Of a stretch of 64,000 nucleotides of DNA, positions 38,107 through 53,529 are shown one piece after another. Source of the stretch: Longimicrobiales bacterium (GTDB taxonomy: Bacteria > Gemmatimonadota > Gemmatimonadetes > Longimicrobiales > Gaopeijiaceae); assembly GCA_965198065.1 (NCBI GenBank), contig CBDAON010000004.1:2464001-2528000 (forward strand), given 5' to 3'. The notes under the pieces are model-generated. The model was not told the DNA's origin, ran no database searches, and saw only the letters and a program-made list of their open reading frames with translations. The translations under genes and the position numbers were made by a program. Each line of letters starts with the position of its first letter. The first letter of the stretch is position 1.

Positions 38107-38205
38107 CCGGGGTCGTTCATCGAGGGGCCGACCCCGGCCCCAGCCGAAGATCGGCGAGCCTCGACCGAATCGGGCGCGAGCGTCCCGGGGACCGGGTGTC
38201 TGGAC

Positions 38206-39195: not shown

Positions 39196-39404
39196 GAGTC
39201 GCATTGGGGAGGAAGGGCCCGTGGGCGCGGGCCGCACCAGAGTATCCCGCGTCGGACGAGCACGTCAAACGATGCAGTCGGACAGGCTCGGGTCCACCCG
39301 GACCGCCGACCGGCAGCCGGCCAGCGAGGCTGGCCCGAGCACGCCGCCCACCGTCCTCATGGCGCCTTGGAGCCGATTTGTGTTGCAGGGGTTACGATGT
39401 CCCG

Positions 39405-39788
39405 GTGGCGGCTCACCTCTTCGTCTACGGGACGCTCCTGAGCGGAGCGGGCCACCCGATGCACCGCGTTCTCGTGGACGGCGGCACGCTTGTCGGAACG
39501 GGGCGGACCCGGGGCCGGCTGTACGACTTCGGCGCGTTTCCCGCCCTGGCTGGCTCGACGGCGGTCGATGGATGGGTGCCCGGGGAGATCTATCGGCTGG
39601 GTCGACCCGGAGTGACCTTTCGCGTTCTCGACGCTTACGAGGGCTGCGACCCGGGTTCCGGATTCCGCCGGGTGCGGCGCTCGGTGATGCTGGATGGGGA
39701 GCGCGCGATCACTGCGTGGGTGTACGTGTTCGAGGGCGATCTTCGGGAGGCGCGCGCCCTCCCGTCGGTGAGAGGCTGGCGGCCGTAG
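39405..39788 (+). CDS. Gamma-glutamylcyclotransferase (AIG2-like) family protein
   Basis: LFVYGTL, GRLYD.G.FP, GEIY, LDAYEG, AWVY. Confidence 0.88.
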   Translation: MAAHLFVYGTLLSGAGHPMHRVLVDGGTLVGTGRTRGRLYDFGAFPALAGSTAVDGWVPGEIYRLGRPGVTFRVLDAYEGCDPGSGFRRVRRSVMLDGERAITAWVYVFEGDLREARALPSVRGWRP

Positions 39789-39794
39789 GGGACG

Positions 39795-40451
39795 TCAGTG
39801 TCCCTCGACGGATCCCCCCGTGCTCCCCTCCATGAGACGGCGGTAGTCGTCCGGGGTGTCCACCTCTACCGGGGGCGGGCCGGCGAGGGGCACGGCGGTG
39901 ATCCACTCGGGATGAGCGAGAAAGGCCGCCCTCGCCCCCTCGTCCCCCCGAAGCGAGGCGAGCGCCTCCCAAACCGCGCGTCCCAGGACAACGGGATGTC
40001 CCGGGGATCCCCTGTATTCGGCCCGCGCGGCGGGCGTTCCGGCTCGCTCCCACGCGGTGAGGACGGCACGCATCCGGTCCGGGCCAACGCCCAGCTCGTC
40101 TCCCAGGAGCACCAGGGCCACCCGACTCTCGTCCCCGGCTGCGAGGAGCCCGGCGCGGAGCGAGGAGGCCTGGCCCGAGGCATGGTCCGGGTTCAGGACC
40201 GTCCGGGCGCCCGGGGGGAGGGAGACGGCGGCACGGATCTCCTCGGCCTGGTGTCCCAGCACCACGATGATCTCGTCCAGCCCGGCGTCCGCCGCCGCGT
40301 CCAGGACGTGCTGGAGGATCGGTTTCCTGCGGAAGGCGAGGAGCTGCTTCGGCTGACCCATCCTTGCGGAGGATCCGGCGGCCAGGATGACAGCCGACAC
40401 GAAGGGAGCGCCGGCCGCGGTCTCCCGTGCTCTGGCCCGGATGGACGACAC
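39795..40451 (-). CDS. mocA: Molybdenum cofactor cytidylyltransferase
   Basis: ILAAGSSARMGQPKQLL, GQASSL, LGD, GHPV, GDEGAR, VDTPDDY; located in a xanthine-oxidase-family cluster. Confidence 0.85.
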   Translation of the reverse strand: MSSIRARARETAAGAPFVSAVILAAGSSARMGQPKQLLAFRRKPILQHVLDAAADAGLDEIIVVLGHQAEEIRAAVSLPPGARTVLNPDHASGQASSLRAGLLAAGDESRVALVLLGDELGVGPDRMRAVLTAWERAGTPAARAEYRGSPGHPVVLGRAVWEALASLRGDEGARAAFLAHPEWITAVPLAGPPPVEVDTPDDYRRLMEGSTGGSVEGH

Positions 40452-40464
40452 GGCCGGGCGGCGC

Positions 40465-41451
40465 CTACCGAGCGCCGGGGCCGAAGAGGAGCCCCCCGTG
40501 ACCCAGCGCCTGGAGGTCGCTCCCGGCGAGCCGCTCCCCCGCGAGGAGCCTCGGAACGATCGCGTCGAACCCGTCCGGCGCGGTGCCACGCACGCAGCCG
40601 GGGGCTCCGATCACGGGAACCTCCCGAAGATAGGCCAGGAGGAGGAGGTGTCCGGGGTCCATAGCGAGACCCAGGTGCTCCACCCGACCCCCCGCAGCCC
40701 GGATGCCTCTCGGGATCACGTCGTGCAGATCCATGATCGCGGTCTCGCCGGCCAGGACCACGAGGCCGGCGCCGCCATTGATCTGCTTCTGGAGCTCCTC
40801 GGCCAGGCCGAGCTCGTCCGGGGGCGAGAAAGTGGGCACTCCGACCGTACAGCCGAGCCTCTCCATCCGTGCTCGAATCGCTCGCCCGAGACCGTCGGCC
40901 AGCCCGGCCCACGCGCCCCTCGTCCCAACGAGGACGATGCCGACCCGGAGCGGCTCCAGGGCTCGGACGCTCACGATCTGGCGCTCGCTCGCGAGCGCCT
41001 CCGCCCGCTCCACCGCCTCCCATGGCAGCGCGTAGGGAATGACCTTTACCGTTGCGACGCGGTCGCCCGCGCGGGCCAGGGCGTGGGTCCGCAAGGTCGC
41101 CACGGTGAGTCCCTCGATCCGGTTCAGCCGGTCGAGCGTGTCGGCCTCGACCCGAACGACACCGGTCCGGCTAGCCGTTAGGTTGACACGCCCGGCGTGA
41201 GATCTCCCTGCCTCCACGCCGGGCCCCGCGAGGAGTCGCCCGACGCGGGCGGCGGCCTCGTCCTCGGCCACGTCATCCGGATCCGGCTCGGCGACGTACA
41301 CCTCCGCGAACCCGAGCTCCTCGAGTGTCCGGATCGCGGCCTCGTCCACCCGGTGCCCCTTTCTCAGGGCCCGCTGGCCGTCGGGGCCCGTGATGTTGTG
41401 CGCGAGGATCCTTCCCTTCGCCTCGTCCACCGGCACCGGACCGAACCTCAA
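40465..41451 (-). CDS. Molybdopterin-binding protein (MoeA/MocA-associated domain)
   Basis: MRFGPVP..A.G.ILAH, EDEAA, GRVNL, ATVKVIPY, DPGHLLLL, GAPGC, GHGGLL. Confidence 0.85.
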   Translation of the reverse strand: MRFGPVPVDEAKGRILAHNITGPDGQRALRKGHRVDEAAIRTLEELGFAEVYVAEPDPDDVAEDEAAARVGRLLAGPGVEAGRSHAGRVNLTASRTGVVRVEADTLDRLNRIEGLTVATLRTHALARAGDRVATVKVIPYALPWEAVERAEALASERQIVSVRALEPLRVGIVLVGTRGAWAGLADGLGRAIRARMERLGCTVGVPTFSPPDELGLAEELQKQINGGAGLVVLAGETAIMDLHDVIPRGIRAAGGRVEHLGLAMDPGHLLLLAYLREVPVIGAPGCVRGTAPDGFDAIVPRLLAGERLAGSDLQALGHGGLLFGPGAR

Positions 41452-41487
41452 GAGATCCCGCCGGTCATGCCCGATGGTCCCCGGACG

Positions 41488-42219
41488 TCACCGGGCGGAG
41501 TCCCCGCGGCCGTTCCTCACGGCGATGATCTGGGTCATGGTCGCGAGCGCGATCTCCTCCGCCCTCCGGGCCCCGACATCGAGCCCGATCGGGGCGTGGA
41601 TGCGCGCGATCTCCTCGTCGGTGGCCCCGGCCTCCTTCAGGGCCTTCACACGCCGCGCGTGCGTTCGAGCCGACCCGAGGGCGCCGATGTAGGGGGCCGG
41701 GCTCCTGATCGCCGCAAGGAGCGCCGGATTGTCGAGCTTCGCGTCGTGGGTGATCACGACTATGTAGCTGAACTCGTCCAGCCCCAGCCGGGGGAGGATC
41801 TCGTTCGGCCATCCCAGGAGAAGCTCGTCCACGTCGGGAAAGCGCTCGGGAGTCGCGAACCTCCCGCGCGCGTCGCTCACGACCACGCGGAAGCCCAGCT
41901 CCCTCGCGAAGCGTCCCAGAGCGGTCGCGATGTGAACGGCGCCCACGATGATCAGTCGCGGCGGAGGGAGATGGGCCTCGATGAAGATCCTCCTCCCCCC
42001 GATCTCCACCGTCTCGGAGCGTCCCGATGCGAGCAGGGACCGGGCCAGCTCCTCGACCTTCGCGTCCAGGTGCGGCGAGCCGAGGCTCCCCAGGGCGAGG
42101 CTGGAGCGATCGACGAGGAGCTTGGAGCCGACTCCTTCGGGCCCGTCCAGCACCGTTGCTACCGCGACCGGCTCGTGGCCCTTCACGCGGTCCACGAACC
42201 ACTGAAAAGGCGACGTCAC
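41488..42219 (-). CDS. xdhC: XdhC/CoxI family Moco chaperone, C-terminal part
   Basis: RLIIVGAVHIA, FATPERFP, THDAKLD, YIGALGS, IHAPIGLD, EEIALA. Confidence 0.9.
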   Translation of the reverse strand: MTSPFQWFVDRVKGHEPVAVATVLDGPEGVGSKLLVDRSSLALGSLGSPHLDAKVEELARSLLASGRSETVEIGGRRIFIEAHLPPPRLIIVGAVHIATALGRFARELGFRVVVSDARGRFATPERFPDVDELLLGWPNEILPRLGLDEFSYIVVITHDAKLDNPALLAAIRSPAPYIGALGSARTHARRVKALKEAGATDEEIARIHAPIGLDVGARRAEEIALATMTQIIAVRNGRGDSAR

Positions 42220-42530
42220 CAGTCGAGGGGCTCCACGAAGACCTCGATGGTGCCTCCGCACGAGAGCCCGACGGCCCACGCCTCCTCGTCGGCGACGCCG
42301 AACGTGAGGAGGCGAGGCTCTCGAGTCTCGAGCACCTCGAGCGCCGCCTCGGAGACGGCGCCCTCGACGCACCCTCCGCTCACGGAGCCGACCATCTTTT
42401 CGGAGGCAGTGATCGCCATCTTGGAGCCCACGGCGCGCGGCGAGGATCCCACGGTCCGCACGACTGTGGCGAGGGCGATGTCCTCGCCGGCGGCCTTCCA
42501 GGCTTCCAGGGTGGAAAGGATGTCGTGCAT
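42216..42530 (-). CDS. xdhC: XdhC/CoxI family, N-terminal part
   Basis: ALATVV..GSSPR.VG, GSVSGGCVE, GLSCGGTIEVFVE. Confidence 0.9.
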   Translation of the reverse strand: MHDILSTLEAWKAAGEDIALATVVRTVGSSPRAVGSKMAITASEKMVGSVSGGCVEGAVSEAALEVLETREPRLLTFGVADEEAWAVGLSCGGTIEVFVEPLDW

Positions 42531-42557
42531 GGTGGAGCGCCCCTCGGAAATGCCGAG

Positions 42558-43619
42558 TCAGCCGCCGATCCTGGACATCTCGACCCTCGGGAGCTCGACG
42601 GTGGCCTCGCTCCGGAGCTCCGAGTACCGGTCGCGCCGGCCCGTCCACACCCCGAGGATGTGGTCGGCGATCTCCCGATCGGATCGACCGTCCCGGAGGA
42701 GTGGCCGGAGCGGGTGCCCGCGGCTGGCGAAGAGGCAGGTGAAGACCTCGCCGTCGGCGGTGAGGCGGGCCCGGTTGCAATCCCCGCAGAAGGGAAGGGT
42801 CACCGACCCGATGATGCCGATTTCGCCGGCCCCGTCGGCGTAGCGATACCGGCTCGCGACCTCGCCCCGATACTTCGGCTCGACGGGCTCGAGCGGCCAG
42901 CGCGCATCCACCCGGTCTCGGATCTCCCGTGCGGAAACCACGTCGTCCATCCGCCATCCGTTCGAGTTGCCGACGTCCATGAACTCGATGAAGCGGAGGA
43001 CGTGGCCGGTGCCGCGGAAGTGCTCGGCCAGCTTCAGGATCTGGTCCTCGTTCACGCCCCGCTTCACAACCATGTTGACCTTGACTGGAGCGAGGCCGGC
43101 ATCCTCCGCGTCCTGGATTCCGTCCAGCACCGTGCGCACGGGCACGTCCATGTCGCTCATCGCCCGGAACACGGCGTCGTCCAGCGCGTCGAGGCTCACC
43201 GTGACGCGCCGGAGACCGGCCTCCCTCAGGGCGCCAGCCCGCCCGGGTAGGAGCGACGCGTTCGTGGTCATCGTCAGATCGCCGATCCCCTCGACCTTCC
43301 AGAGCATCCGGACCAGGGTTTCCAGGTCCCGGCGCAGGAGCGGCTCTCCGCCCGTGATCCGGACCTTCTCCACGCCCAGGCCAACGAAGATCCGAGCGAG
43401 CCGGCAGATCTCCTCGAAGCTCAGGATCTCATCCTTGGGCAGGAACCGGAATCCAGCCCCGAACACCTCCTTCGGCATGCAGTAGACGCAGCGGAAGTTG
43501 CAGCGGTCCGTAACCGAGATGCGGAGGTCGTGGAGGCGCCGTCCCAGCAGATCGGCCGGGTGAGGTGTCTCCGTGACGGGAAGCGGCTGGCCCCGGGAGA
43601 GGGGCGAAGGCGTGACCAT
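42558..43619 (-). CDS. moaA: GTP 3',8-cyclase (radical SAM)
   Basis: LRISVTDRCNFRCVYCMP, TGGEP, FCGDCNRARL..TCLF, C-terminal MSRIGG. Confidence 0.96.
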   Translation of the reverse strand: MVTPSPLSRGQPLPVTETPHPADLLGRRLHDLRISVTDRCNFRCVYCMPKEVFGAGFRFLPKDEILSFEEICRLARIFVGLGVEKVRITGGEPLLRRDLETLVRMLWKVEGIGDLTMTTNASLLPGRAGALREAGLRRVTVSLDALDDAVFRAMSDMDVPVRTVLDGIQDAEDAGLAPVKVNMVVKRGVNEDQILKLAEHFRGTGHVLRFIEFMDVGNSNGWRMDDVVSAREIRDRVDARWPLEPVEPKYRGEVASRYRYADGAGEIGIIGSVTLPFCGDCNRARLTADGEVFTCLFASRGHPLRPLLRDGRSDREIADHILGVWTGRRDRYSELRSEATVELPRVEMSRIGG

Positions 43620-43621
43620 GG

Positions 43622-46084
43622 GTGGGAAAGTACCTTCCGTACCGTCGGACGTACACCTGCCAACTCGAACCTGGAGCTTCCTTGCCTTTCTGCTACCGCC
43701 CTGGGCCTCGGCTCTCGCCAACGACCGAACGCTCGTCTGCGCGCTCGTCTACTTCCCATCACCGCCCGACTCCGACGGCCGGCCCGGGCTGGGTCCCGCT
43801 CGGCGTCCTGCTGCTCGCCGGGGCCGGCCCGCTCGAGGCCCAGGACCCCAGGCCAATCGAGGCGATCGGGGGAGGAGACCCGGCCGCGGCGGCCCCGAGC
43901 CCGGCCCTTCCCGACCGTCGCTCGATGACGGCTGAGCGGCTCCAGGAGGGTGAGCAGATCGAGCTGGACGGCATCCTGGACGAGCCGGCGTGGCAGCGCG
44001 CGGCGCCGGCCACCGACTTCATCCAGCAGGATCCGGTGTTCGGGGGCACGCCGACCGAGCGGACCGAGGTCCGGATCGTCTTCAACCGCGAGAGCCTCTA
44101 CATGAGCTTTCTCGCGTACGACTCAGAGCCCGATCGCCTGCTCGGCAACACGATGAAGCGGGACGAGTTCCTGTCCGCCGACGACCGCTTCATGTGGACC
44201 ATGGACCCGTTCTTCGACCAGCAGACCGGATACTTCTTCGAGATGAACCCGTCGGGGCTGATGGCGGATGCGCTGCTCGTGGCGGGCGGCGGGAACGAAC
44301 GGTCGTGGGACGGGATCTGGGACGCTTACGTGCGGCGGCACGAGGAAGGCTACACGATCGAGATCGAAATCCCGTTTCGAACGCTCAACTTCGACCCGAA
44401 CGCGCCGGCGTGGGGGATCAACTTCCAGCGCACGATCCGTCGGAAGAGCGAGGAGAACCTGTGGACCGGGCACGAGCGAAACCAGGGCCTCCGCCGGATG
44501 TCGAACGCAGGGCTCCTCCTCGGGATCTCGGATGTGACCCAGGGGCGCGGGCTGGACGTAAAGCCGTACGTGACGGCGACGACCTTCGACGCGCCGGGAG
44601 ATCCGGACGCGGGCCCGAGGGACACGGACGCCGACGTCGGCGTGGACCTCTTCTACAACCTCACGCCCGATCTGCGTGCGAACCTGACCGTGAACACGGA
44701 CTTTGCGCAGACCGAGGTAGATCAGCGCCTCGTGAACCTCACGCGCTTCCCCCTCCGCTACCCTGAGCAGCGCGACTTCTTCCTGGACGGCTCGCCCTTC
44801 TTCGCCTTCGCGTCGAGCGGCGGTGGGCGGGGCGGGGGCGGCGGCGGGCGGGGCGGGGGCGGCGGGGGCGGCGGCGTCGAGCCGTTCTTCAGTCGCCGGA
44901 TCGGTCTCGACCAAAGCGGGATTCCGCAGGAAGTGGAGTTGGGTGGAAAGCTCACCGGCCGGGCCGGGGCGCAGGACATCGGCCTGCTCCAGGTGCGGAC
45001 AGGAGAGGAGCGGCGGGACGGGGAGACGATCGCGGGCGAGGACTTCAGCGTCCTTCGGGTCAAGCGACGGATCTTCACGCAGTCCTACGTGGGGAGCATC
45101 TACACGCTGCGCCATACGCGGGACGGTGGGACTTCCGAGGACCGGCACACGGCGGGCACGGACTTCCGGCTTGCCACGTCCGCCTTCCGCGGAGCCGACA
45201 ACCTGTTCCTCTCCGGGTTCTTGCTCTGGACTACGAACCTCGCCGACGCGGGCGAAAACCTCGCCTATGGGCTGAACCTGGACTATCCGAACGATCCCTG
45301 GTCGGGGAGGATGTCGTTCACCGAGGTGCAGCCGAACCACAGCCCCGCGGTCGGTTTCGTGTCCCGCCGCGGGTATCGGGGCTACAGCCCGTCCATCGGG
45401 TTCTCCCCGCGGCCGGTGGCCCACCCGTGGATCCGCCAGTTCAACTTCAACGCGAACGCTGACGTCCGCACGAACATGGACAACGCCGTCGTCACGCGGG
45501 TGCTCGGGCTCCAGCCGTTCGGAATCAACACCCACGCGGGCGAGAGCCTGAACGTCTCGGTCAGTCGCAACTACGAGCGGCTCGAGCGGGACTTCGAGAT
45601 CCAGGACGGCGTGATCCTTCCCGAAGGAAGCGACTATACGTTCACGCGGTATCGGGTCCAGATCGGCACGGCCAACCGCCGGGTGCTCTCCACTTCGTCC
45701 GGCTTCGAGTTCGGGGAATTCTTCTCCGGCGAGCGCGAGGAAGTGTCGGTGAACCTCGGGATCCGGCCGATGGTGGGTGTCGTGGCGAACCTGTCGACCG
45801 AGTGGAATCGAGTGCGGCTTCCCGAAGGCGACTTCCAGACCCGCTTGTACCGGGGAACCCTGGACACCCAGTTCAACCCGTGGATTTACGTGGTGAACAC
45901 CCTCCAGTACGACTCCGTGACGGGTGGGCTGGGGTGGCAGATCCGCTTCCGGTGGACGGTCGATCCGGGAAACGACCTCTACGTCGTCTATACGCACAAC
46001 TGGCTCGAGGACCCGCTCGGCGACCGCTTCCTTAGCCAGGATCGTCGCGGGGCCGCGAAGTTCGTGTACACGTACCGCTGGTAG
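43622..46084 (+). CDS. CBM9-like plus DUF5916 outer-membrane protein
   Basis: IELDGILDEPAW, EIEIPFRTL, WGINFQR, NTDFAQTEVD, NLTRF.L..PEQRDFF, FFSRRIG, aromatic C-terminus YTYRW; true start uncertain (signal-like segment near 43790-43840). Confidence 0.8.
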   Translation: MGKYLPYRRTYTCQLEPGASLPFCYRPGPRLSPTTERSSARSSTSHHRPTPTAGPGWVPLGVLLLAGAGPLEAQDPRPIEAIGGGDPAAAAPSPALPDRRSMTAERLQEGEQIELDGILDEPAWQRAAPATDFIQQDPVFGGTPTERTEVRIVFNRESLYMSFLAYDSEPDRLLGNTMKRDEFLSADDRFMWTMDPFFDQQTGYFFEMNPSGLMADALLVAGGGNERSWDGIWDAYVRRHEEGYTIEIEIPFRTLNFDPNAPAWGINFQRTIRRKSEENLWTGHERNQGLRRMSNAGLLLGISDVTQGRGLDVKPYVTATTFDAPGDPDAGPRDTDADVGVDLFYNLTPDLRANLTVNTDFAQTEVDQRLVNLTRFPLRYPEQRDFFLDGSPFFAFASSGGGRGGGGGGRGGGGGGGGVEPFFSRRIGLDQSGIPQEVELGGKLTGRAGAQDIGLLQVRTGEERRDGETIAGEDFSVLRVKRRIFTQSYVGSIYTLRHTRDGGTSEDRHTAGTDFRLATSAFRGADNLFLSGFLLWTTNLADAGENLAYGLNLDYPNDPWSGRMSFTEVQPNHSPAVGFVSRRGYRGYSPSIGFSPRPVAHPWIRQFNFNANADVRTNMDNAVVTRVLGLQPFGINTHAGESLNVSVSRNYERLERDFEIQDGVILPEGSDYTFTRYRVQIGTANRRVLSTSSGFEFGEFFSGEREEVSVNLGIRPMVGVVANLSTEWNRVRLPEGDFQTRLYRGTLDTQFNPWIYVVNTLQYDSVTGGLGWQIRFRWTVDPGNDLYVVYTHNWLEDPLGDRFLSQDRRGAAKFVYTYRW
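44818..44876 (+). repeat. G-rich tandem repeat encoding GGGRGGGGGGRGGGGGGGG
   Basis: Two near-identical ~21-nt units followed by GGC/GGG triplets, in frame within the DUF5916 gene. Confidence 0.75.
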
Positions 46085-46179
46085 GGGAACGTCTCGCCCA
46101 CGGTGGGTCGGACTGCGCGGCGCGCTCCCAGGCCTTTCGCCTTGTCCTCATGCGCAGGTTGCCGTAACTCTCCATCATC

Positions 46180-46965
46180 ATGGACGTCCGGGTCTCCTTT
46201 TATGGAAACCTCATGCGCCTGGCCGGCGGCCGGACGCGGACGGTCCGGGTCGGCGGCAGCCCGCCCACCGTCGGAGATTTGAGGGCTGCCGTCGCTCGGG
46301 ACCTTCCAGAGTTGGCGCCCCACCTCGCGCATGTCGCCGTGGGGATGGGCGCAGAGGTCTTCCCCGACGAAGCGGTCCTTCGAACCGATTCGGAAGTCTC
46401 CCTCCTCCCTCCGGTGAGCGGCGGCGCTCCGGCGTCTAGCGGGGGCGGATCGCCCCCGCGCAATTCTTCGCTGGGCGAGGGCGCGCCCCGCATCCAGGAC
46501 GGCCCGCTCTCCCTCGACGCGCTACTCCTCGAAACCACCGGCGTCGACGCGGGCGCCCTCGTGGTCTTCGCGGGAACGGTGCGGGCGAACGACGGAGGGG
46601 AGGAGATTGCCGCGCTCGAGTACGACGTGCAGCGCGAGATGGCCGAGAAGTCGATCCAGGAGATCGAGGCCGATCTCGAGGGGCGCCCCGGCGTGCTCGC
46701 CTGCCGGATCGCGCACCGGGTAGGGGCGGTCCCGGCCGGTGAGCCCAGCGTGTACGTGGTGGTTCGGGCCCGGCACCGCGGAGAGGCCTTCGACGCCGCC
46801 CGGGCCGGGATTGATCGGGTGAAGGCCGAGGCGCCCATCTGGAAGGAGGACGTCCGTCCCGACGGGAGCCGCAGGGCTCACGCCGGTTCCGATGCCACTC
46901 CCCTCGTCGAGCGAGCCCCACGGCCCCTTTCGACCGGCGTTTTCGGCGCCGAGGACGATGGTTGA
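46180..46965 (+). CDS. MoaD-MoaE fused molybdopterin synthase
   Basis: Ubiquitin-like N-terminus ending LLPPVSGG, linker, then MoaE motifs GALVVFAGTVR, LEY, HRVG, KAEAPIWKE. Confidence 0.9.
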   Translation: MDVRVSFYGNLMRLAGGRTRTVRVGGSPPTVGDLRAAVARDLPELAPHLAHVAVGMGAEVFPDEAVLRTDSEVSLLPPVSGGAPASSGGGSPPRNSSLGEGAPRIQDGPLSLDALLLETTGVDAGALVVFAGTVRANDGGEEIAALEYDVQREMAEKSIQEIEADLEGRPGVLACRIAHRVGAVPAGEPSVYVVVRARHRGEAFDAARAGIDRVKAEAPIWKEDVRPDGSRRAHAGSDATPLVERAPRPLSTGVFGAEDDG

Positions 46966-46991
46966 CACCCACGAAGGACGGAAGCTAAGAT
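46962..46991 (+). promoter_or_regulatory. Sigma70-like promoter of the molybdoenzyme operon
   Basis: TTGACA-18 nt-TAAGAT; strong SD GGAGGAGG before the ATG at 47106. Confidence 0.6.
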
Positions 46992-47105
46992 TGCGCCAGT
47001 AAAGAAGGAGGAAATCCCCAGCGGCTCTCGGTTCCCCTGACGAGTCGCAACCGGGCCGTCGGCGCCGGTAGGCCCGGAGGCACCACATCGGAGGAGGACC
47101 ACTCG

Positions 47106-47735
47106 ATGGAAATCCAGGAGATCCTCGTTGCGGATCGGGGGGTATCCCGCCGGTCCTTCATCAAGGGTGTGATCGCGGCCGGAGCCACAGCGTCTTCGGC
47201 CTCGTACCTTTTCAGGGGGACGACTCTAGTCCAGGCGCAGACGGCTCCCGGAGCCGTGGAGCGGCTGATCACGCTGAACGTGAACGGCCAGTCCCGCCCG
47301 GTGGACGTGTCGCCTCAAGAGACCCTGGGCCATACGCTCCGGTACAAGCTGGGGCTGACCGGCCCCAAGTATGGGTGTGACCGCGCGGAGTGCGGCGCCT
47401 GCACGGTCCTCGTCGACGGGCTCGCGAGGTACTCGTGCTCGCTGCTCACGCACCAGGTCCGGGGCCGTCAGGTCACGACGATCGAGGGCCTCGAGTCGCC
47501 CACTGGCGAGCTCAGCCCGGTTCAGCAGGCCGTTTACGATGAGGCCGGGTTCCAGTGCGCGTTTTGCGCGTCCGGGTTCATCATGGCCATGACGAGCATG
47601 CTGAATCAGAACCCGAATCCGACACCCGAAGAGACTCGGCGGATGATTGGCGGCAACCTGTGCCGTTGCGGGGACTACGACAAGATTCTCCGGAGTGCCA
47701 TGAGGGCCGTGGAGTACAACCGCGCCACCGCCTGA
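47106..47735 (+). CDS. 2x[2Fe-2S] subunit with Tat signal (PaoA/CoxS-like)
   Basis: SRRSFIK twin-arginine signal with VQA cleavage site; GCDRAECGACTV, QCAFC, NLCRCG. Confidence 0.93.
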   Translation: MEIQEILVADRGVSRRSFIKGVIAAGATASSASYLFRGTTLVQAQTAPGAVERLITLNVNGQSRPVDVSPQETLGHTLRYKLGLTGPKYGCDRAECGACTVLVDGLARYSCSLLTHQVRGRQVTTIEGLESPTGELSPVQQAVYDEAGFQCAFCASGFIMAMTSMLNQNPNPTPEETRRMIGGNLCRCGDYDKILRSAMRAVEYNRATA

Positions 47736-47799
47736 GCATTCAGGGATGATCTGCTGACGTACTTCATGCCGGGGGGAACCCCGAGGGAGGCATAGGAAG

Positions 47800-50250
47800 A
47801 TGTCCCAGTACAGGTTGGTGGGAACGAGCCAGGCTCCCAAGGATCTGCGGGCCAAGGTCACGGGGCGATCCAAATATGCGGAGGATTTCCGCGCGGACGG
47901 GATGATCTTCACGAAGCTCCTCCTGAGCCCGGTCCCCCGAGGGATCGTGCGCTCGATCGACCCGAGCCGGGCGCTGGCCATGCCCGGGGTGCACATTGTG
48001 CTCACCGGGGCCGACTTCCCCCCGGTCGAGGGGAACCAGGAGCCGCTGCTCGCCACCGAGATCCGCTATCAGGGCCAGCCGATCGGGGTGGTCGCCGCGG
48101 ATACCGAGACGCTCGCCGCCGAGGCGGTCGCGGCCCTGCAGGCGGACATCGAGCGACTGCCCTTCGCGCTCGATCCCATGGAGAGCCTGATCGAGGGCGG
48201 TCCGAACGCGAGGGACGGAGGCAACGTCCCCGGCGGTGGTGATGGGACGATGGGGGAGGTGAAGTGGACCCGCGAGCAGATGGCGCGCTTCCAGGGGACG
48301 AGCTTCCCGGCCGAGGATCTACCGGGACTCACCCAGGAGAACGCGAGCCTGTTCGTCCGCGGCATCGAAGAGCCGACACTCGACGACTTCAATGCCGTGA
48401 TGGCTAGGAGCGCTGTGATCGTCGAGGAGCCCGTCTACCACCAGACTCAGAACCACCATCCCATGGAGCCGCGGAGCTCGATGGCCTACTGGCAGGGGGG
48501 GCAGTGCTACCTCCACTGTTCCACCCAGAGCGCGGCCCGGACCCACGCGGGCATGGCGAATCGCATCGGCATCGAGCGGGATCAGCTGACCCTGATTGCC
48601 GAGTACTGCGGCGGGGGCTTCGGATCCAAGATCGGCGGAAACCTCCTCGACCCACTCCCGGCCGAGATCTCGCGCCGGCTGAACGGGCGGCCCGTGATGA
48701 TGCGGATCACGCGGGACGAGGAGACGTTCATCGGGCGGGCCCGCTCCGGGATGGCGGGGTGGGTCAAGGTGGGCTTCCGGGCCGACGGCAAGGTCCTGGC
48801 GATGGACTGGGTCATGGTGGGAGACTCCGGGCCCCACGGTGCCCGGGGTGACTGGAACGGCGCCGTGAGCACGGTGGATCTCGCCCTCCAGCCGGAGGCG
48901 CGGCGCGCGCGCACGTTGGCGATCTCGACAAACACGCCTCCCCGTTCCGCGCAGCGCGGCCCCGGAGGCGCCCAGGGCGTCACGATTATCACGTCTGCGC
49001 TCGAGCGGGGTGCCCGAGAGCTCGGCGTGGACCGCGCGGACATGATGTACGTGAACGCCCCGTCAGGGCGCGCGGTCTATGGAGACAACGCGACCGAGGT
49101 CACGAGCTCGTTCGCCAAGGAAGCCGTGCTCCTCACGCGGGAGCGGTTCAACTGGGACGAGAAGAGACTTCTGTCCGGGCAGAGGAACGGGAGCAAGGTG
49201 ACGGGCGTCGGACTCGCCCTTAGCCCCTTCTCCGCGGGAAGCCGCGGGATGGACGCCCTCCTCATCATCCGTCCGGACGGAAGTCTGACGATCCATTCCG
49301 GCGTGGGGAACCTCGGGACGCACTCGGTCTTCGACACCGCCATGTCGGCGGCCGAAGCACTGAATCATCCTTGGGACGAGGTGGAGGTGGTTTGGGGGAA
49401 TACGAGCCGCGGCCTCCCCTGGGCTTCCTCGCAGTCCGGGAGCCAGACAACCCACGCGCACACCCGCTCGAACTGGGCGGCTGGGCAGGCGGCCAAGACG
49501 AGGCTTCAGGAGATTGCCGCTCGGGACCTGGGCGGTAGCCCCGACGACTACGACGTGGGGAACGGGCGGGTCTTCCGGGTCGGGAGCCCCGGGACCGCCA
49601 TGACGTTCGCCCGGGCGGCCGAGCGGGCGATCCAGCTCGGAGGCGCCTACGACGGCCATGAGCTCCCAGAGAGCCTGAACGAGATGACGGTGGCGACCGT
49701 CCAGAACCATCTGGTGGGCCAGGGTCTCGTTGTCGCGGCGACGGACGAGTACGGGGGCAACGGGTCGCTCCGGTCCTCGGTGGTGGCGATGGCCGTGATC
49801 GAGCTCGACGTGGAGACCGGGATGATCGAGGTGAAGGATCTCGTCGCGGTGGCCGACTGCGGCACGGTGCTGAACCCTCGCAGCCTCTACGCCCAGATGT
49901 CTGGAGGCGTTCTTCAGGGCATGAGCCAGGCCCGCTTCGAGAAGTGGGGATACGACCGCACGTGGGGCGTGAACGCGAACAAGCGCTTCCACACCGTCAA
50001 ACCGATCTCCCTCCTCGACACGCCGGATGTCATGGCGTGGGACGCGGTGAACATCGCGGATCCGGAGACGCCGGTCGGATCGCGCGGCATCGGCGAGCCT
50101 CCGGTCGGCGCCGGTGGCGGCGTTATCGTATCGGCCGTATACGACGCGCTCGGGAAGGCGATCAACCGCACGCCGCTCACGCCCGACGTAATCCTGAACG
50201 CGCTCGAGGAGCGGGCTCCCGGCTACACCCTCCTTCAGACCCACGTCTGA
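47800..50250 (+). CDS. Xanthine-oxidase-family molybdopterin-binding subunit
   Basis: AKVTG..YAED, MEPR, STQ, GGGFGSK, QRGPG, DCGTVLNP, catalytic GIGEPP. Confidence 0.95.
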   Translation: MSQYRLVGTSQAPKDLRAKVTGRSKYAEDFRADGMIFTKLLLSPVPRGIVRSIDPSRALAMPGVHIVLTGADFPPVEGNQEPLLATEIRYQGQPIGVVAADTETLAAEAVAALQADIERLPFALDPMESLIEGGPNARDGGNVPGGGDGTMGEVKWTREQMARFQGTSFPAEDLPGLTQENASLFVRGIEEPTLDDFNAVMARSAVIVEEPVYHQTQNHHPMEPRSSMAYWQGGQCYLHCSTQSAARTHAGMANRIGIERDQLTLIAEYCGGGFGSKIGGNLLDPLPAEISRRLNGRPVMMRITRDEETFIGRARSGMAGWVKVGFRADGKVLAMDWVMVGDSGPHGARGDWNGAVSTVDLALQPEARRARTLAISTNTPPRSAQRGPGGAQGVTIITSALERGARELGVDRADMMYVNAPSGRAVYGDNATEVTSSFAKEAVLLTRERFNWDEKRLLSGQRNGSKVTGVGLALSPFSAGSRGMDALLIIRPDGSLTIHSGVGNLGTHSVFDTAMSAAEALNHPWDEVEVVWGNTSRGLPWASSQSGSQTTHAHTRSNWAAGQAAKTRLQEIAARDLGGSPDDYDVGNGRVFRVGSPGTAMTFARAAERAIQLGGAYDGHELPESLNEMTVATVQNHLVGQGLVVAATDEYGGNGSLRSSVVAMAVIELDVETGMIEVKDLVAVADCGTVLNPRSLYAQMSGGVLQGMSQARFEKWGYDRTWGVNANKRFHTVKPISLLDTPDVMAWDAVNIADPETPVGSRGIGEPPVGAGGGVIVSAVYDALGKAINRTPLTPDVILNALEERAPGYTLLQTHV

Positions 50251-50274
50251 TCAGCGAGATAGAGGAGAGCGACC

Positions 50275-51276
50275 ATGGCTGAGATTCGTGACATGATGAG
50301 CACGTTCGAGCTCTTCCAGCCCATGGAGCTGGGAGGGGCACTCGATCTCCTGAGGCAGCACGGATCCGACGCGTGGATCCTGTCCGGAGGGCTGGATACG
50401 TTCGACTGGCTCAAGGACCGGGCCAAGTCCCCGAGCGTGGTCGTGGACATCGCGGGCATCGGCGAGCTAGACGGAGTCGAGGTCACCGGCGACGGCATCC
50501 GCATCGGTGCCATGACGTCGCTTACGGACGTCTCGACGCACTCCGAGGTCCAGACGCGCTTTCCGCTCCTGGCGCAGGCTGCCGGCCGGGTGGCGACCCC
50601 GCAGATCCGAAACCAGGGGACGATCGGCGGAAACATCTCCCAGGACACGCGGTGCTGGTATTACCGGAGCGGGTGGCCGTGCTACCGGGCGGGTGGGAAC
50701 ACCTGCTACGCGAACGCGCCGCAGGCCCTGAACCGTGAGCACGCGCTCTTCGAGTCGTCCCGGTGCGTGGCGGTGACGCCGTCCGACACGGCTCCCGCCT
50801 TCGTGGTGCTGGAGGCGCAGATGGAGATCCAGAACTCCCGCGGAAGCCGCATGGTGAGCGCGGAGGACTTCTTCATCGGACCCGCCGAGGACATCACTCG
50901 GATGAACGTGATGGAGCCGGAGGATCTGCTCACGGCGATTTACCTCCCGAACAAGTGGGCCGGGAAGGCCTTCTACTTCGAGAAGGTGGCGGACCGGCTG
51001 TCGTGGGACTTCCCGCTCGCGAACGTGTCAGCGGTGCTGGACGTGCAGGGCGGCGTGATCTTCGAGGCGAACATCGCGGTCGGCGGCGTGGCTGCTCGCC
51101 CCTATCGGGTGCGCCGGGTGGAGAACGCCATCGCCGGCCGTCCGATCAACGAGCAGACGCTGGACGAGGCGGCGAGGCTCGCGGTCCAGGGAGCCCGTCC
51201 GCTCCAGTACAACGGGTACAAGCTGGCGCTCACCCGGAACCTGGTGAAGCGGGCGATCCGGGACGCCAGCGCGTAG
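50275..51276 (+). CDS. FAD-binding subunit with Cys-rich [4Fe-4S] insert (PaoB/HcrB-like)
   Basis: GGLDT, ATPQIRNQGTIGGN, RCWYYR..CYRAGGNTCYA..CVA, PSD, NGYK. Confidence 0.92.
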   Translation: MAEIRDMMSTFELFQPMELGGALDLLRQHGSDAWILSGGLDTFDWLKDRAKSPSVVVDIAGIGELDGVEVTGDGIRIGAMTSLTDVSTHSEVQTRFPLLAQAAGRVATPQIRNQGTIGGNISQDTRCWYYRSGWPCYRAGGNTCYANAPQALNREHALFESSRCVAVTPSDTAPAFVVLEAQMEIQNSRGSRMVSAEDFFIGPAEDITRMNVMEPEDLLTAIYLPNKWAGKAFYFEKVADRLSWDFPLANVSAVLDVQGGVIFEANIAVGGVAARPYRVRRVENAIAGRPINEQTLDEAARLAVQGARPLQYNGYKLALTRNLVKRAIRDASA

Positions 51277-51277
51277 C

Positions 51278-52180
51278 ATGGAATTCGTTCGTATAGCAGA
51301 GAACCCGTGGGGCGAGCAGATCCTCATTGGGTTGGGCTGGGGCGTCGCCTGGCTGGTCGTGGTGCTCGGGGCGATTTTCATCGTCGGGCACGCGGCCTTC
51401 GCGAAGAAAAAGGATGAAGGCCGGGAAGAGCCGAAGTACGACCCGACCATCGTCGCGGCGGTGCCCGACCATGTTACGCGGCACGGAAAGAGCGCCCGGT
51501 ACTCGCACTGGACGCTAGCGGTCGCCACCTTCGCGCTTCTCATCACGGCCTTCGTGCCGATGCTCGGGCTCCAGTTCCCTTGGGTGACGATCCACTGGCT
51601 CTCCGGCATCGTGCTCACCGCATACGTCGTCTACCACACGGTGGACACGCTTGCCCGGACGAGCTGGCGCGAGATGTGGATCTCCATACCGGACGTCCGC
51701 GAGGCGGTCGCGCGCGTGGGGAACTTCTTCGCCCGCACCGAAGACCCGTCGAAGCGGCCCGGCAAGTGGGGGATGGAGAACAAGCTCTTCCATCACCTTA
51801 TCGCCCTCGCGGGGTTGGGGGTCGCGGCCACGGGCGTCCTCATGATGGGCCGCGTGGATACGTGGTTCTGGGCCTCCGACCCCTACCGCTGGAACATCAG
51901 CGACGCTACGTGGGGTGTCATCTTCGTGATCCACGGGATCACGTCCGTGGGGTTCATCGGGCTCATCATGGCCCACCTCTACTTCGCCGTGCGGCCGGAC
52001 AAGTTCTGGATCACCCTCTCGATTTTCCGCGGCTGGATCACGAAGGAGGAGTACCTCGGACATCACAACCCCGAGCGCTGGCCGGTCGCGCCCGGAGCGG
52101 AGGGACACGGCCGGGTGACCGAGGGCCAGGCGGTCGGGGCCGGAGCCGGGTCCTCTCCCATGGATCGCCCCAGGGAGTAG
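51278..52180 (+). CDS. Di-haem cytochrome b membrane subunit (FdnI-like)
   Basis: Multiple TM helices with His ligands RYSHW, TIHW, VIHG, MAHLY; C-terminal SIFRGWI..HH typical of FdnI-like proteins. Confidence 0.85.
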   Translation: MEFVRIAENPWGEQILIGLGWGVAWLVVVLGAIFIVGHAAFAKKKDEGREEPKYDPTIVAAVPDHVTRHGKSARYSHWTLAVATFALLITAFVPMLGLQFPWVTIHWLSGIVLTAYVVYHTVDTLARTSWREMWISIPDVREAVARVGNFFARTEDPSKRPGKWGMENKLFHHLIALAGLGVAATGVLMMGRVDTWFWASDPYRWNISDATWGVIFVIHGITSVGFIGLIMAHLYFAVRPDKFWITLSIFRGWITKEEYLGHHNPERWPVAPGAEGHGRVTEGQAVGAGAGSSPMDRPRE

Positions 52181-52190
52181 CGCCGCGTTC

Positions 52191-52640
52191 ATGGCGGGAT
52201 CCGGTCGGAAACAACTCCAGGAAGCCATCGACAAGATCGAGGGGGCGTACGAGTTCTTCCTCGCGTACGCGGCCCAGGGACTCACTCGGGAGAGCGACGC
52301 CTCGCGTGTCGTAAGGCAATTCAGCGAGCACCTGAACGCCATGGTAGACGGAGTGTCCGTGCTGGGGGCGGCCCTCGGCCGCTTGGTGGAGGAGGAGAGG
52401 CCCGAGGCCGGAGATCAGCTGGGCGCGTTCAAGGAACTCCTGGAGACGGACGCGGCTCGGGCCCGGGTGGCGATGCAGGTCGTCAAGGCGCAGGTTTTCC
52501 CCACCTCGCAGCTCGTGGACAACCTGAACGCCTCCGTCCACGTGCGGGCCCTGCTCACGGACCTCTTCCTCCTGGACGAGGCGCTCCGTCTGGGGGTGGA
52601 CGGCGCGACGAAGCCCGGGCCCTCGAAGTCGCTCTCGTAA
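52191..52640 (+). CDS. Conserved hypothetical helical protein in the molybdoenzyme operon
   Basis: IEGAYEFFLAYAAQG and SQLVDNLNASVHVRALLTDLFLLDE; starts 10 nt after cytochrome b. Confidence 0.75.
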   Translation: MAGSGRKQLQEAIDKIEGAYEFFLAYAAQGLTRESDASRVVRQFSEHLNAMVDGVSVLGAALGRLVEEERPEAGDQLGAFKELLETDAARARVAMQVVKAQVFPTSQLVDNLNASVHVRALLTDLFLLDEALRLGVDGATKPGPSKSLS

Positions 52641-52644
52641 CACG

Positions 52645-53529
52645 CTGAACTGGGCCGTCCTCGCCGGAGGGTGCGCGATTTTCTACGCGCTCCACGGGGC
52701 ATGGTCGGCGCGTGTGTCTCGCCGATCCGGCGTCGCGTTCGCGGGATGGACGCTCTTCACCTTCGCCCTCCCTCTCTTCCTAGCGTATCTGGCCGCGACC
52801 GGCCTGCCTCCGGTTGACTCACGGTTTTGGCCCGTCTGGGGGTTCAACTGCGTCCTGAACCTGGGGGCGCTCTACTTGTTTCTGTCGGTACTCAGGGACG
52901 GTGAGCTGGGATTCACGTATCCGCTCCTCGCTATCACGCCCCTGTTCGTTGTGCCCGTGGAATGGGTCGCGCTCGGAGTCCTCCCGGGGCGCTTCGCGTT
53001 GGTGGGTATCTTCCTGATCGTCCTCGGCGTCTACCTCCTGAACTTCCAGGGCCTCGGACCGAGGCTCACGGACCCCTTCCGCTCCCTGGCCCGGGATCCT
53101 GGCGCCGTCCGCATGCTCGCGGTGGCCGTGCTTTGGTCGGTCGGAGGCACGCTGGACCGGGTGGCCGTGCTGGCTTCGTCCCCCGCCTTCTACTCCGTCA
53201 TGTTCGCGGGCGGTCTGTCTGCTCTCTTCCTGCTCGTGCTGGTCGTGGGTAGGAAGCGAGACAGCATCGCGCCGCTTCCGGGCCTCCCACGCGTCCGGCT
53301 CTGGGAGCTCGTGGTTCACGGCCTCTTCTTCTCGTGCATGATGATCCTTCAGATGGAGGCCCTGACGAGGGCCCAGGCGTCGTACGTGCTCAGCATCAAG
53401 CGAACGGGGTCCGTTCTCGCGGTGCTCCTCGGCTATCTTGCGTTTCGCGAGCGCTCCTTGGTTCCCAGGCTCGTGGGGGCACTGATCACGGTCGCGGGAG
53501 CCTTCGTCCTCGTCCTGTCCGCTTCGTGA
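52645..53529 (+). CDS. EamA/DMT family transporter
   Basis: About 10 TM helices, YPLLAITPLF, SYVLSIKR, FRERS; the frame stays open upstream of GTG 52714 with a TM-like LNWAVLAGGCAIFYALHG, so a CTG start at 52645 is proposed. Confidence 0.85.
   Translation: MNWAVLAGGCAIFYALHGAWSARVSRRSGVAFAGWTLFTFALPLFLAYLAATGLPPVDSRFWPVWGFNCVLNLGALYLFLSVLRDGELGFTYPLLAITPLFVVPVEWVALGVLPGRFALVGIFLIVLGVYLLNFQGLGPRLTDPFRSLARDPGAVRMLAVAVLWSVGGTLDRVAVLASSPAFYSVMFAGGLSALFLLVLVVGRKRDSIAPLPGLPRVRLWELVVHGLFFSCMMILQMEALTRAQASYVLSIKRTGSVLAVLLGYLAFRERSLVPRLVGALITVAGAFVLVLSAS

Follow-up and report, generated by a model that had tools for sequence, protein, structure and literature searches.

Within the 64,000-nucleotide stretch of DNA analysed here (the window), a compact operon joins a molybdoenzyme of the xanthine oxidase family to a membrane cytochrome of the formate dehydrogenase type. 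The conserved unit comprises a [2Fe-2S] subunit with a twin-arginine (Tat) signal, a molybdenum (Mo) subunit, an FAD/[4Fe-4S] subunit, an FdnI-fold cytochrome b and a helical bundle of 149 amino acids. The pairing of cytochrome and enzyme is held in two gene orders, and a distant type-II cassette, newly found here, retains it. The products probably form a periplasmic substrate:menaquinone oxidoreductase, exported by the Tat pathway, docked on its own cytochrome b and moving charge as formate dehydrogenase-N does.

An earlier sequence-only reading had named a series of genes between 39795 and 53529, all of which were found in place. The core operon lies on the plus strand and begins with the 2x[2Fe-2S] subunit (47106..47735; Pfam Fer2 and Fer2_2), followed by a Mo subunit of an uncharacterised xanthine-oxidase subfamily (47800..50250; Ald_Xan_dh_C, MoCoBD_1 and MoCoBD_2), an FAD subunit with a PaoB/HcrB-type [4Fe-4S] insertion (50275..51276), the di-haem cytochrome b (51278..52180; PF01292) and the 149-aa bundle (52191..52640). 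The reported gap of 1 nt between the stop of the FAD subunit and the start of the cytochrome was confirmed and suggests coupled translation. A candidate sigma-70-like promoter, TTGACA-18-TAAGAT, stands 5′ of the operon (46962..46991, plus strand); it is a consensus match only, agreeing at 10/12 positions, with 3 such sites found against 0.7 in shuffles. In G045, TTGACA boxes of a similar kind precede each of three cassette copies.

The enzyme subunits carry the hallmarks of the xanthine oxidase family, namely two [2Fe-2S] clusters and an FAD subunit. Eight cysteines of the small subunit (91/96/99/111 and 151/154/186/188) accompany a twin-arginine motif, SRRSFIK, at residues 14-20, with a possible cleavage site after VQA44 (motif search). 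The Tat signal proposed earlier held up among relatives, as a motif search found RRxF in all 83 distinct homologues of this, the type-I, cassette. The Mo subunit contains a hammerhead and two Moco-binding domains, all three Pfam matches being above cut-off and every NCBIfam model far below it. Its catalytic Glu766, in a C-terminal GE motif, aligns with PDB members and, like Pro388, is present in 89/89 homologues. Given the mocA-like and xdhC genes nearby, the enzyme likely holds a sulfurated Mo-MCD cofactor. In the FAD subunit, Cys127, Cys136, Cys144 and Cys164 are invariant (54/54 rows), and a subfamily cluster loop reads C-x-Y-Y-R-x-x-W-x-C-Y-R-x-G-G.

Cytochrome b matches PF01292 at 57.4 bits (cut-off 30.1). 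Its predicted structure (pLDDT 82.9) has the FdnI fold plus an N-terminal hairpin and helix, giving the five helices also seen in E. coli YdhU; HyaC and PhsC are further related anchors of this fold. The single Foldseek match below E 0.001 was FdnI itself (PDB 1kqf_C), with a TM-score of 0.67 by target and 18% identity. Haem ligands H77, H106, H219 and H233 align with FdnI H18, H57, H155 and H169 and are invariant in 54/54 rows, and Lys plus Arg counts are consistent with an N-terminus-out topology. On the predicted cytoplasmic side, three further histidines (38, 120 and 172) are unchanged in all 54 type-I and all 41 type-II rows; H120 and H172 are missing from FdnI and YdhU. FdnI Asn110, which we take to be a quinone-site residue, is replaced by Gly here, by Pro in 44/54 type-I rows and by Asp in 40/41 type-II rows, while His233 is kept; as Asn110 is not kept, the quinone site cannot be called FdnI-like. 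A search of plasmids with the cytochrome gave no match, and the sources of the members found include metagenome-assembled genomes.

That the cytochrome is tied to the trimer, as the sequence-only reading implied, is borne out by the order of the genes and by their joint occurrence or loss across genomes. Where GTDB loci extend at least 4.5 kb upstream, the order FeS-Mo-FAD-cytochrome occurs in 67/68 loci of relatives. Among 41 relatives each gene is present in 14, with 13 in common, and both mismatches are contig ends inside the FAD gene. Among 251 Gemmatimonadota genomes, cytochrome and FAD subunit (threshold 500 bits; next best score 331) are found in an identical set of 44. The Mo subfamily is in 26 of 251 Acidobacteriota genomes, every one of which also gives a strong cytochrome match; a 27th genome gives such a match and has its locus broken at a contig end. 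The genomes are related, and these counts are not independent events. G155 keeps both enzyme and cytochrome though they lie at least 0.5 Mb apart. Extra copies of the Mo subunit often share one cytochrome gene, as in G045, which has a single cytochrome gene for as many as three cassettes and four Mo genes. Mo genes on their own and cassettes that lack a cytochrome are common, and a related [4Fe-4S] loop is found in many trimers that bear a Tat signal but lack this cytochrome (L267-L272), so such enzymes can manage without it.

The type-II cassette is a distant sister with reversed gene order (cytochrome first) and fused subunits; its cytochrome and Mo subunit are 26% and 27% identical to those of type I. 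In 43 of 46 loci that extend 900 bp or more downstream, the enzyme genes come after the cytochrome gene. The haem histidines and FAD-subunit cluster loop are the same as in type I, with the Tat motif in 49/50 and the four cysteines in 25/25. This loop occurs in 102/104 type-I and 20/20 type-II rows and is not found in PaoB. In the tree, the FAD subunits of both cassettes fall on one side of a branch with support 95/93 (89/51 under a simpler model); the two Mo subunits may or may not be sisters (support 74; AU p 0.48).

The 149-aa protein is modelled as a soluble four-helix bundle (pLDDT 90.6) with invariant Glu, Asp, His and Tyr residues. It has no Pfam or NCBIfam match, and its structural matches are generic bundles only. 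Its gene adjoins the cytochrome gene in 69/70 loci, was not found in 4 of the 27 Acidobacteriota genomes with a type-I cytochrome, and was not found in any of 77 type-II loci. Judged by this distribution it is a conserved but dispensable accessory of type-I operons. It is probably an optional assembly factor.

Upstream, on the minus strand, lie a MocA-like nucleotidyltransferase (open frame 39795..40589, real start probably near 40450; PF12804, 119 bits), whose best NCBIfam match, TIGR03310 MocA, stays below cut-off (139 vs 186 bits), and a molybdopterin-binding-domain (MoCF) protein (40465..41451; weak PF00994). The latter had been called moeA-like; it retains a weak MoCF_biosynth match (21.9 bits, below the cut-off of 26.6) and no MoeA_N match, and the genome's own MoeA, with MoeA_N, is at G000:C4:1028914. 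The split of xdhC was confirmed: the first part (42216..42530, minus strand) has the XdhC_CoxI domain only and the second (41488..42219, minus strand, GTG start) has XdhC_CoxI and XdhC_C, the second-part start sitting on the first-part stop in a GTGA overlap. L073 and G045 have the same split. Together with moaA (42558..43619, open frame to 43721, minus strand; TIGR02666, 378 bits, above the cut-off of 284), a moaD-moaE fusion (46180..46965, plus strand; ThiS and MoaE) is part of a local Moco block. Between the two is a DUF5916 gene (43622..46084, plus strand, true start probably further downstream), absent from the earlier reading and not so placed in L073 or G045; the genome carries about 14 copies of it. 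An EamA transporter (52714..53529, plus strand; PF00892) follows the bundle.

The picture of a self-contained Mo-MCD island is not supported. MoaC and MoeA are encoded about 1.5 Mb from the operon, and Moco genes flank it in close kin only: among 46 full-flank loci, mocA, xdhC and moaDE occur in none and moaA in 1. EamA, previously counted in the operon, is likewise found in 1 of the 46; it is a neighbour in close kin and lies outside the conserved unit. G+C across the window is 0.64-0.72 in 2-kb bins, and this evenness gives no compositional sign of an island.

In the preferred reading, the three enzyme subunits would fold in the cytoplasm, receive Mo-MCD through MocA and XdhC, and be exported together on the small subunit, whose Tat motif is observed, as PaoABC is. 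The Mo centre and Glu766 would hydroxylate an aldehyde or a non-purine heterocycle, by analogy with the family. Electrons are expected to pass from Mo through FeS I, FeS II and FAD to [4Fe-4S], a path whose ligands are observed and whose order follows PaoABC and 4-hydroxybenzoyl-CoA reductase. From the [4Fe-4S] loop they would reach the periplasm-side haem (H106/H219), the cytoplasm-side haem (H77/H233) and menaquinone. If menaquinone is protonated from the cytoplasm, each turnover would move two charges across the membrane, as formate dehydrogenase-N does. Extra Mo subunits and cytochrome-less cassettes may share one cytochrome in trans, which would widen the substrate range. The host genome (87.6% complete) encodes TatC, MenB, a haem-copper oxidase and an NrfD/alternative-complex-III-like locus.

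Database labels for the cytochrome read 'formate dehydrogenase subunit gamma' or 'Ni/Fe-hydrogenase cytochrome b', which would make it a mere neighbour that belongs to another enzyme. This reading is largely refuted and scarcely credible: the score against the FdnI model, TIGR01583, is 29 bits (cut-off 116), the neighbours are of the xanthine oxidase family and not fdnGH, co-occurrence is exact and the pairing persists in two gene orders. Neither a NiFe hydrogenase match nor an exported formate dehydrogenase was found in the 87.6% complete genome. Its three PF00384 matches resemble NuoG, ActB and a cytoplasmic FdhF-like protein and it has a single PF01292 gene; thus no other partner was found. 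The cytochrome might instead be a dedicated acceptor reached by transient contact or through a shuttle (a soluble quinone, a flavin or the co-exported 149-aa protein), with no stable four-subunit complex. The sharing in G045, the common cytochrome-less cassettes, the separate genes of G155 and a trimer without membrane anchor fit this arrangement, which is nevertheless unlikely given the suggested coupled translation and a cluster loop and cytochrome N-terminal hairpin conserved as expected of a docking pair; type II, moreover, lacks the 149-aa gene, as does part of type I. Also counting against a complex is that no FdnH-type ferredoxin subunit or anchor bridges enzyme and haem.

Two other readings concern the use of the haems. 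The same complex could run in reverse as a terminal reductase in the periplasm, menaquinol and proton-motive force feeding [4Fe-4S] and the Mo centre reducing an N-oxide, sulfoxide or similar. PhsC runs in this direction, driven by proton-motive force, and its thiosulfate reductase model matches 5/54 cytochrome rows; E. coli YdhU aligns with the five-helix form, in which a His ends the additional helix. Against this, the formate dehydrogenase gamma model matches 54/54 rows, the host has aerobic respiratory genes, and the Glu plus Pro pattern is that of xanthine-oxidase-family members that are mostly oxidising. In favour of reversal, 4-hydroxybenzoyl-CoA reductase, which the FAD subunit matches best among NCBIfam models (below cut-off), has the same extra cluster and inverted electron flow according to a title in the reference list of PMC3958847. 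Overall we regard reversal as improbable. Less probable still, the cytochrome could conduct electrons across the membrane to an acceptor or metal site in the cytoplasm, or reduce quinone without net charge transfer. The invariant His 38, 120 and 172, the loss of Asn110 and the invariant residues of the soluble bundle speak for it, but both the fold and the haem ligands belong to a family that reduces quinone, and the bundle is dispensable.

The operon offers a candidate acceptor for periplasmic PaoABC-type enzymes and a candidate role for their extra [4Fe-4S] cluster. Tentatively, and with more doubt than confidence, it may represent a class of respiratory enzyme that is old and has yet to be described: a dehydrogenase of the xanthine oxidase family whose electrons run through a di-haem cytochrome b in a charge-separating redox loop, with the PaoB-type [4Fe-4S] as exit and a fixed FAD/[4Fe-4S]-cytochrome output module for interchangeable Mo subunits with different active sites. 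If true, Gemmatimonadota and Acidobacteriota, with the genes in 44/251 and 28/251 sampled genomes, could respire many dilute aldehydes or heterocycles without import. Metabolic reconstructions can be misled by the formate dehydrogenase and hydrogenase labels.

The claim that no characterised example is known stands, as no characterised orthologue appeared in the literature searched or in the PDB; nor did that literature yield a paper on a xanthine-oxidase-family enzyme coupled to a formate-dehydrogenase-type cytochrome b. E. coli PaoABC (PDB 5G5G/5G5H) and aldehyde oxidase 5Y6Q share with the present enzyme three subunits, a Tat-motif small subunit, an extra four-Cys cluster in the FAD subunit (the best PDB matches), Pro after a conserved Arg in the active-site loop and lack of the xanthine-dehydrogenase Glu. 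However, the Mo and FAD subunits are only 26.6% and 32.5% identical to those of PaoABC, the cluster loop differs, and the order is FeS-Mo-FAD rather than FeS-FAD-Mo. PaoA and PaoC equivalog scores (130 vs 322 and 194 vs 1180 bits) and positions outside the PaoB and PaoC branches exclude orthology. The pao region has no cytochrome b, unlike this operon, in agreement with the earlier description of PaoABC as lacking a membrane subunit. In PMC3958847 the Tat signal of PaoABC is placed on the [2Fe-2S] subunit, NAD+ is not used, the reaction with O2 is slow and the acceptor was stated in 2014 as not known.

Other family members were rejected on similar grounds. The 4-hydroxybenzoyl-CoA reductase models TIGR03193-5 score 151 vs 258, 261 vs 995 and 182 vs 405 bits; HcrCAB (PDB 1RM6) is among the top PDB and NCBIfam matches and shares the extra [4Fe-4S] in the FAD subunit, but has a different cluster loop. 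It is cytoplasmic and ferredoxin-fed. Bovine Glu802 and Arg880, the purine-orienting residues of xanthine dehydrogenase, correspond to Ile278 (no Glu in 89 rows) and Ala355/Val356 (no Arg), and Pro388 replaces the Phe of the active-site loop. In place of AYxCSFR, which we take to be the CoxL copper loop of Mo-Cu CO dehydrogenase, the loop reads AQRGPG, and the CoxL model scores 182 bits (cut-off 950). The preprint bioRxiv 10.1101/2024.01.09.574806 describes coupling of that trimer to menaquinone via CoxG, also found with other members of the family. CoxG is not a haem protein but a membrane-anchored shuttle that binds quinone, and here the copper motif is absent and a Tat motif present.

FdnI-fold redox-loop anchors are known for DMSO-reductase-family enzymes and hydrogenases. 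FdnGHI shares the cytochrome fold, the four haem His and a Tat-exported catalytic part (predicted here), but the latter is of the xanthine oxidase family, no FdnH-type ferredoxin is present, and the cytochrome has a YdhU-like N-terminal extension and three extra invariant His. The membrane aldehyde dehydrogenase of acetic acid bacteria (large subunit 8GY3), a PDB match and also a xanthine-oxidase-family Mo enzyme, faces the periplasm and reduces quinone through a c-type cytochrome subunit without an FAD subunit. The present operon has no cytochrome c family and does have an FAD subunit, and is thus not of that type. Quinone-linked periplasmic family members therefore already exist, although to our knowledge the acetic acid bacterial enzyme does not move electrons across the membrane. 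With quinone coupling of the family known via c-type cytochromes and CoxG, carrying electrons across the membrane by b haems would add a new wiring, not a new principle.

The region at 39795-53529 carries genes on both strands. Those on the minus strand encode a MocA-like nucleotidyltransferase, a protein with a molybdopterin-binding domain, an XdhC split into two parts, and MoaA; on the plus strand the DUF5916 gene is followed by the moaD-moaE fusion, by the genes for the [2Fe-2S], Mo and FAD subunits and the cytochrome b, and by those for the 149-aa protein and EamA. From the [2Fe-2S] gene to the EamA gene the successive gaps measure 64, 24, 1, 10 and 73 nt, and a sigma-70-like promoter (46962-46991) lies between moaDE and the [2Fe-2S] gene, upstream of the latter. 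The surroundings are ordinary: 37063-39788 contains an ABC-2 exporter pair and a short frame (39204-39788) that appears similar to gamma-glutamylcyclotransferases, and thrS with translation genes lies from 53667 onward. No tRNA genes were found in the window. The 3-Mb genome (G000) shows a strong expansion of DUF5916 proteins, with genes at 43622-46084 of the window and in about 13 other places.

The [2Fe-2S] subunit begins with SRRSFIK followed by a moderately hydrophobic stretch, and its eight Cys are ligands for two clusters. In a motif test, RRxF was present in all 83 distinct homologs above 55% identity, and the genome encodes TatC. The FAD subunit has a four-Cys insertion as in PaoB, 5Y6Q and HcrB, which is invariant in 54/54 rows. 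All three xanthine-oxidase-family domains occur in the Mo subunit, which falls below the cut-off of every NCBIfam model; all 89 homologs compared retain the catalytic Glu766 as well as Pro388, and 88 of them Arg386. At the positions matching the Glu and Arg that we take to orient the purine in xanthine dehydrogenase, the homologs compared have neither residue, and the motif sought as the presumed copper loop of CoxL is also missing, so that xanthine dehydrogenase and CO dehydrogenase are both ruled out. The substrate-channel loops differ from homolog to homolog, a variability that would fit several substrates.

The cytochrome (51278-52180) was modeled from 39 rows (pLDDT 82.9) with five long helices, a hairpin at the N-terminus and a further helix that is probably amphipathic. 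FdnI, the cytochrome b of formate dehydrogenase-N (FdnGHI), is the sole Foldseek match of the model under E 0.001 and the sole PDB match of the profile; a PDB search with the single sequence returned no match. His77, His106, His219 and His233 align with FdnI His18, His57, His155 and His169, which we take to be the heme ligands. Three further His, at 38, 120 and 172, are invariant in both cassette types described below and are predicted on the cytoplasmic side, where a metal site, a third heme or a proton path is possible; His38 sits where the extra helix ends and is aligned with His47 of Escherichia coli YdhU. The Asn110 of FdnI is not conserved. The loops predicted inside hold 6, 9 and 8 Lys and Arg residues and those outside 1, 0 and 2, a distribution by which the N-terminal hairpin would be periplasmic. 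A profile search among 1.84 billion representatives gave 158 matches at E up to 1e-30, and no fusions were seen among the best 150 of these, all of which are 334 aa or shorter.

The sequence-only reading had wired the enzyme to the cytochrome, and the cytochrome proves to be conserved with the trimer genes. A scan of GTDB species genomes yielded at least 549 relatives among at least 566 pattern matches, and the best 80 of the at least 549 were analyzed. Within these 80, the FeS-Mo-FAD order is kept in 67 of the 68 loci with at least 4.5 kb upstream, and the 149-aa gene comes next in 69 of the 70 whose downstream flank is 800 bp or longer; among the matches listed, the nearest named relatives are Gemmatimonadota, with numerous Longimicrobiales. 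Since these loci were selected through the cytochrome, the reverse count was also made, starting from the enzyme. In a set of 41 near genomes the cytochrome is present in 14, the Mo subfamily (at least 645 bits; next score 142) in 14 and both in 13; the two mismatches are contigs ending inside the FAD gene. The cytochrome occurs in 44 of 251 Gemmatimonadota genomes (including the unpublished G595, counted only as a negative), and the same 44 encode an FAD subunit above 500 bits, the next best scoring 331. Across 251 genomes from the same phylum as G041, taken as Acidobacteriota from locus L113, all 26 carriers of the Mo subfamily fall within the 28 carriers of the cytochrome; the remaining two are G151, with a contig end, and G095, with a second cytochrome type. 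One genome, G155, keeps both the cytochrome and the enzyme genes, unlinked. The genomes compared are kin, and these counts do not represent independent events.

The weak match in G095 (26% identity) led to a sister cassette, type-II, in which the cytochrome shares the extra helix and all seven invariant His, and its gene lies upstream of those for a fused [2Fe-2S]-Mo protein with a Tat motif and an FAD subunit. A metagenome scan returned 79 loci, 77 of them type-II; examples are L159:8289-14652 and L177-L253, with the cytochrome, a fusion of about 1040 aa and the FAD gene in that order. An enzyme gene adjoins the cytochrome in 43 of the 46 loci with at least 900 bp downstream, the misses being L217, L243 and L252, of which L217 and L252 have short flanks. 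The Tat motif is found in 49/50, the four Cys in 25/25 and the fusion in 26/34 closed frames; the 149-aa gene is absent from all 77 loci. In the active site a Cys follows the GGGFGGK loop. Members with names are Acidobacteriota (Blastocatellia). Identity to the window's subunits is 27-29% for Mo and 40-43% for FAD, and the FAD subunits have a cluster loop in common (102/104 type-I rows, 20/20 type-II rows) that PaoB lacks. Under LG+C20 an FAD tree of 46 rows, one gappy row excluded, placed both types on one side of a branch with support 95/93; a tree under LG+G gave only 89/51. A swap of Mo subunits between the types was considered and dropped, sisterhood of the two Mo branches being neither supported nor excluded by the Mo tree. 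Many Gemmatimonadota that lack the cytochrome (L266-L272) encode xanthine-oxidase-family trimers with a Tat motif, and in most of these the [4Fe-4S] loop is related.

Mo subunits can outnumber cytochromes. A second Mo gene, 62-64% identical to the first, stands alone at G000:C3:15689-18118 (L033:7690-10122); it has no Tat motif of its own, the nearest 8 kb or so contain no gene for a small or FAD subunit, and elsewhere the assembly yielded no such gene from this subfamily. Similar lone copies occur in G029 and G155. The genome G045 (C8:236000-257000; L125, L126) has three tandem FeS-Mo-FAD sets, each with a separate TTGACA promoter-like box, and four Mo genes, 80-92% alike with differing channel loops, upstream of one cytochrome gene. 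A second Tat-bearing cassette (L037-L042), its Mo subunit 44-46% identical, has no cytochrome gene and is found in genomes that also hold the main operon. This excess of enzyme sets and Mo genes suggests that a single output module may serve several catalytic subunits. Elsewhere in G000 are a two-subunit xanthine-oxidase-family enzyme with a twin-arginine motif on its Mo subunit (C4:1200778-1203670; L044:4778-7670), in a layout we take to be isoquinoline-oxidoreductase-like, and a separate bis-MGD enzyme locus without a Tat motif (C4:198600-202650; L279), where MobA-like, FdhF/YdeP-like and FdhD-like frames, named by eye, are consecutive.

Beyond the five core genes conservation fades. In 46 full-flank loci mocA, xdhC and moaDE never occur, and moaA and EamA once each; the molybdenum cofactor block is found beside the operon in close kin alone (L073 and G045, the latter lacking DUF5916), and so is EamA (L029, L045, L047-L050). 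MoaC and MoeA are encoded about 1.5 Mb away and G+C is even across the window, so the description of the region as a self-contained island was too strong. The 149-aa protein is modeled as a soluble four-helix bundle with numerous relatives (7939 of 8000 candidates), and its gene is present in 23 of 27 type-I Acidobacteriota genomes, with one fragment elsewhere. Neither Pfam nor NCBIfam has a match for it, Foldseek returned nothing under E 0.001, the highest Z (11.1) was among generic bundles, and its Atlas matches are unnamed clusters only. A plasmid search for cultured carriers gave no match to the cytochrome or the 149-aa protein; matches to the FAD and Mo subunits were below 39% and PaoABC-like or other. 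In four marine RNA runs, selected with the window's own stretch and matched in small shares, the five core genes are matched by contig pieces (151-417 nt, about 95-99% alike) and EamA by none; the upstream 18.5 kb, for which a stricter threshold was used, yielded few long pieces. From contigs of runs so selected, this is only a weak hint of expression.

Genes, motifs, ligands, fold and co-occurrence form the directly established part of the model. On the proposed route the trimer would be exported through Tat and the substrate hydroxylated at Mo, and electrons would pass from Mo over two FeS clusters, FAD and the [4Fe-4S] cluster to two hemes and menaquinone. FdnGHI separates charge across the membrane, and by analogy the same pattern may apply here. 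The host encodes MenB, a heme-copper oxidase and an NrfD-family gene adjoining an ActB-like frame, so O2 could re-oxidize menaquinol; futalosine MqnC was not found in the 87.6% complete genome.

An oxidizing, quinone-coupled complex is the probable reading of these sequences. The best evidence here for a functional link between enzyme and cytochrome is the pairing itself, retained over the distance between type-I and type-II and in two gene orders. Counter to this link, trimers with a Tat motif and a related loop occur in several Gemmatimonadota that lack such a cytochrome. Covariation across 81 FAD/cytochrome pairs (about 40 effective) gave no signal either way (top z 6.97 vs 6.3-7.45 in three shuffles). 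A loose coupling of enzyme and cytochrome is unlikely. Electron flow in the reverse direction, from the cytochrome to the enzyme, is likewise judged unlikely. A non-quinone or non-electrogenic role of the cytochrome is improbable. That the cytochrome is merely a neighbor by coincidence is scarcely credible; G000, at 87.6% completeness, has one PF01292 gene only, and a search there for an alternative partner turned up neither a hydrogenase nor an exported formate dehydrogenase, its three PF00384 frames having been assigned by eye.

The aldehyde dehydrogenase of acetic acid bacteria is linked to cytochrome c, and its structure, PDB 8GY3, was among the PDB matches. In the parts of the sources consulted, PaoABC is described as a trimer of the periplasm whose acceptor is unknown (PMC3958847), CoxG couples CO dehydrogenase to quinone (bioRxiv 10.1101/2024.01.09.574806), and three further papers (PMC13673990, PMC10609526, PMC11316326) make no mention of such a system. 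No published description of this architecture was found in the full-text literature searched, which covered few subscription papers and no supplements; supplements of genome papers may include these genes. The architecture is real and conserved, and apparently undescribed so far. It is assembled from known modules: the system resembles FdnGHI in its proposed working and PaoABC in its enzyme head, yet it is orthologous to neither.
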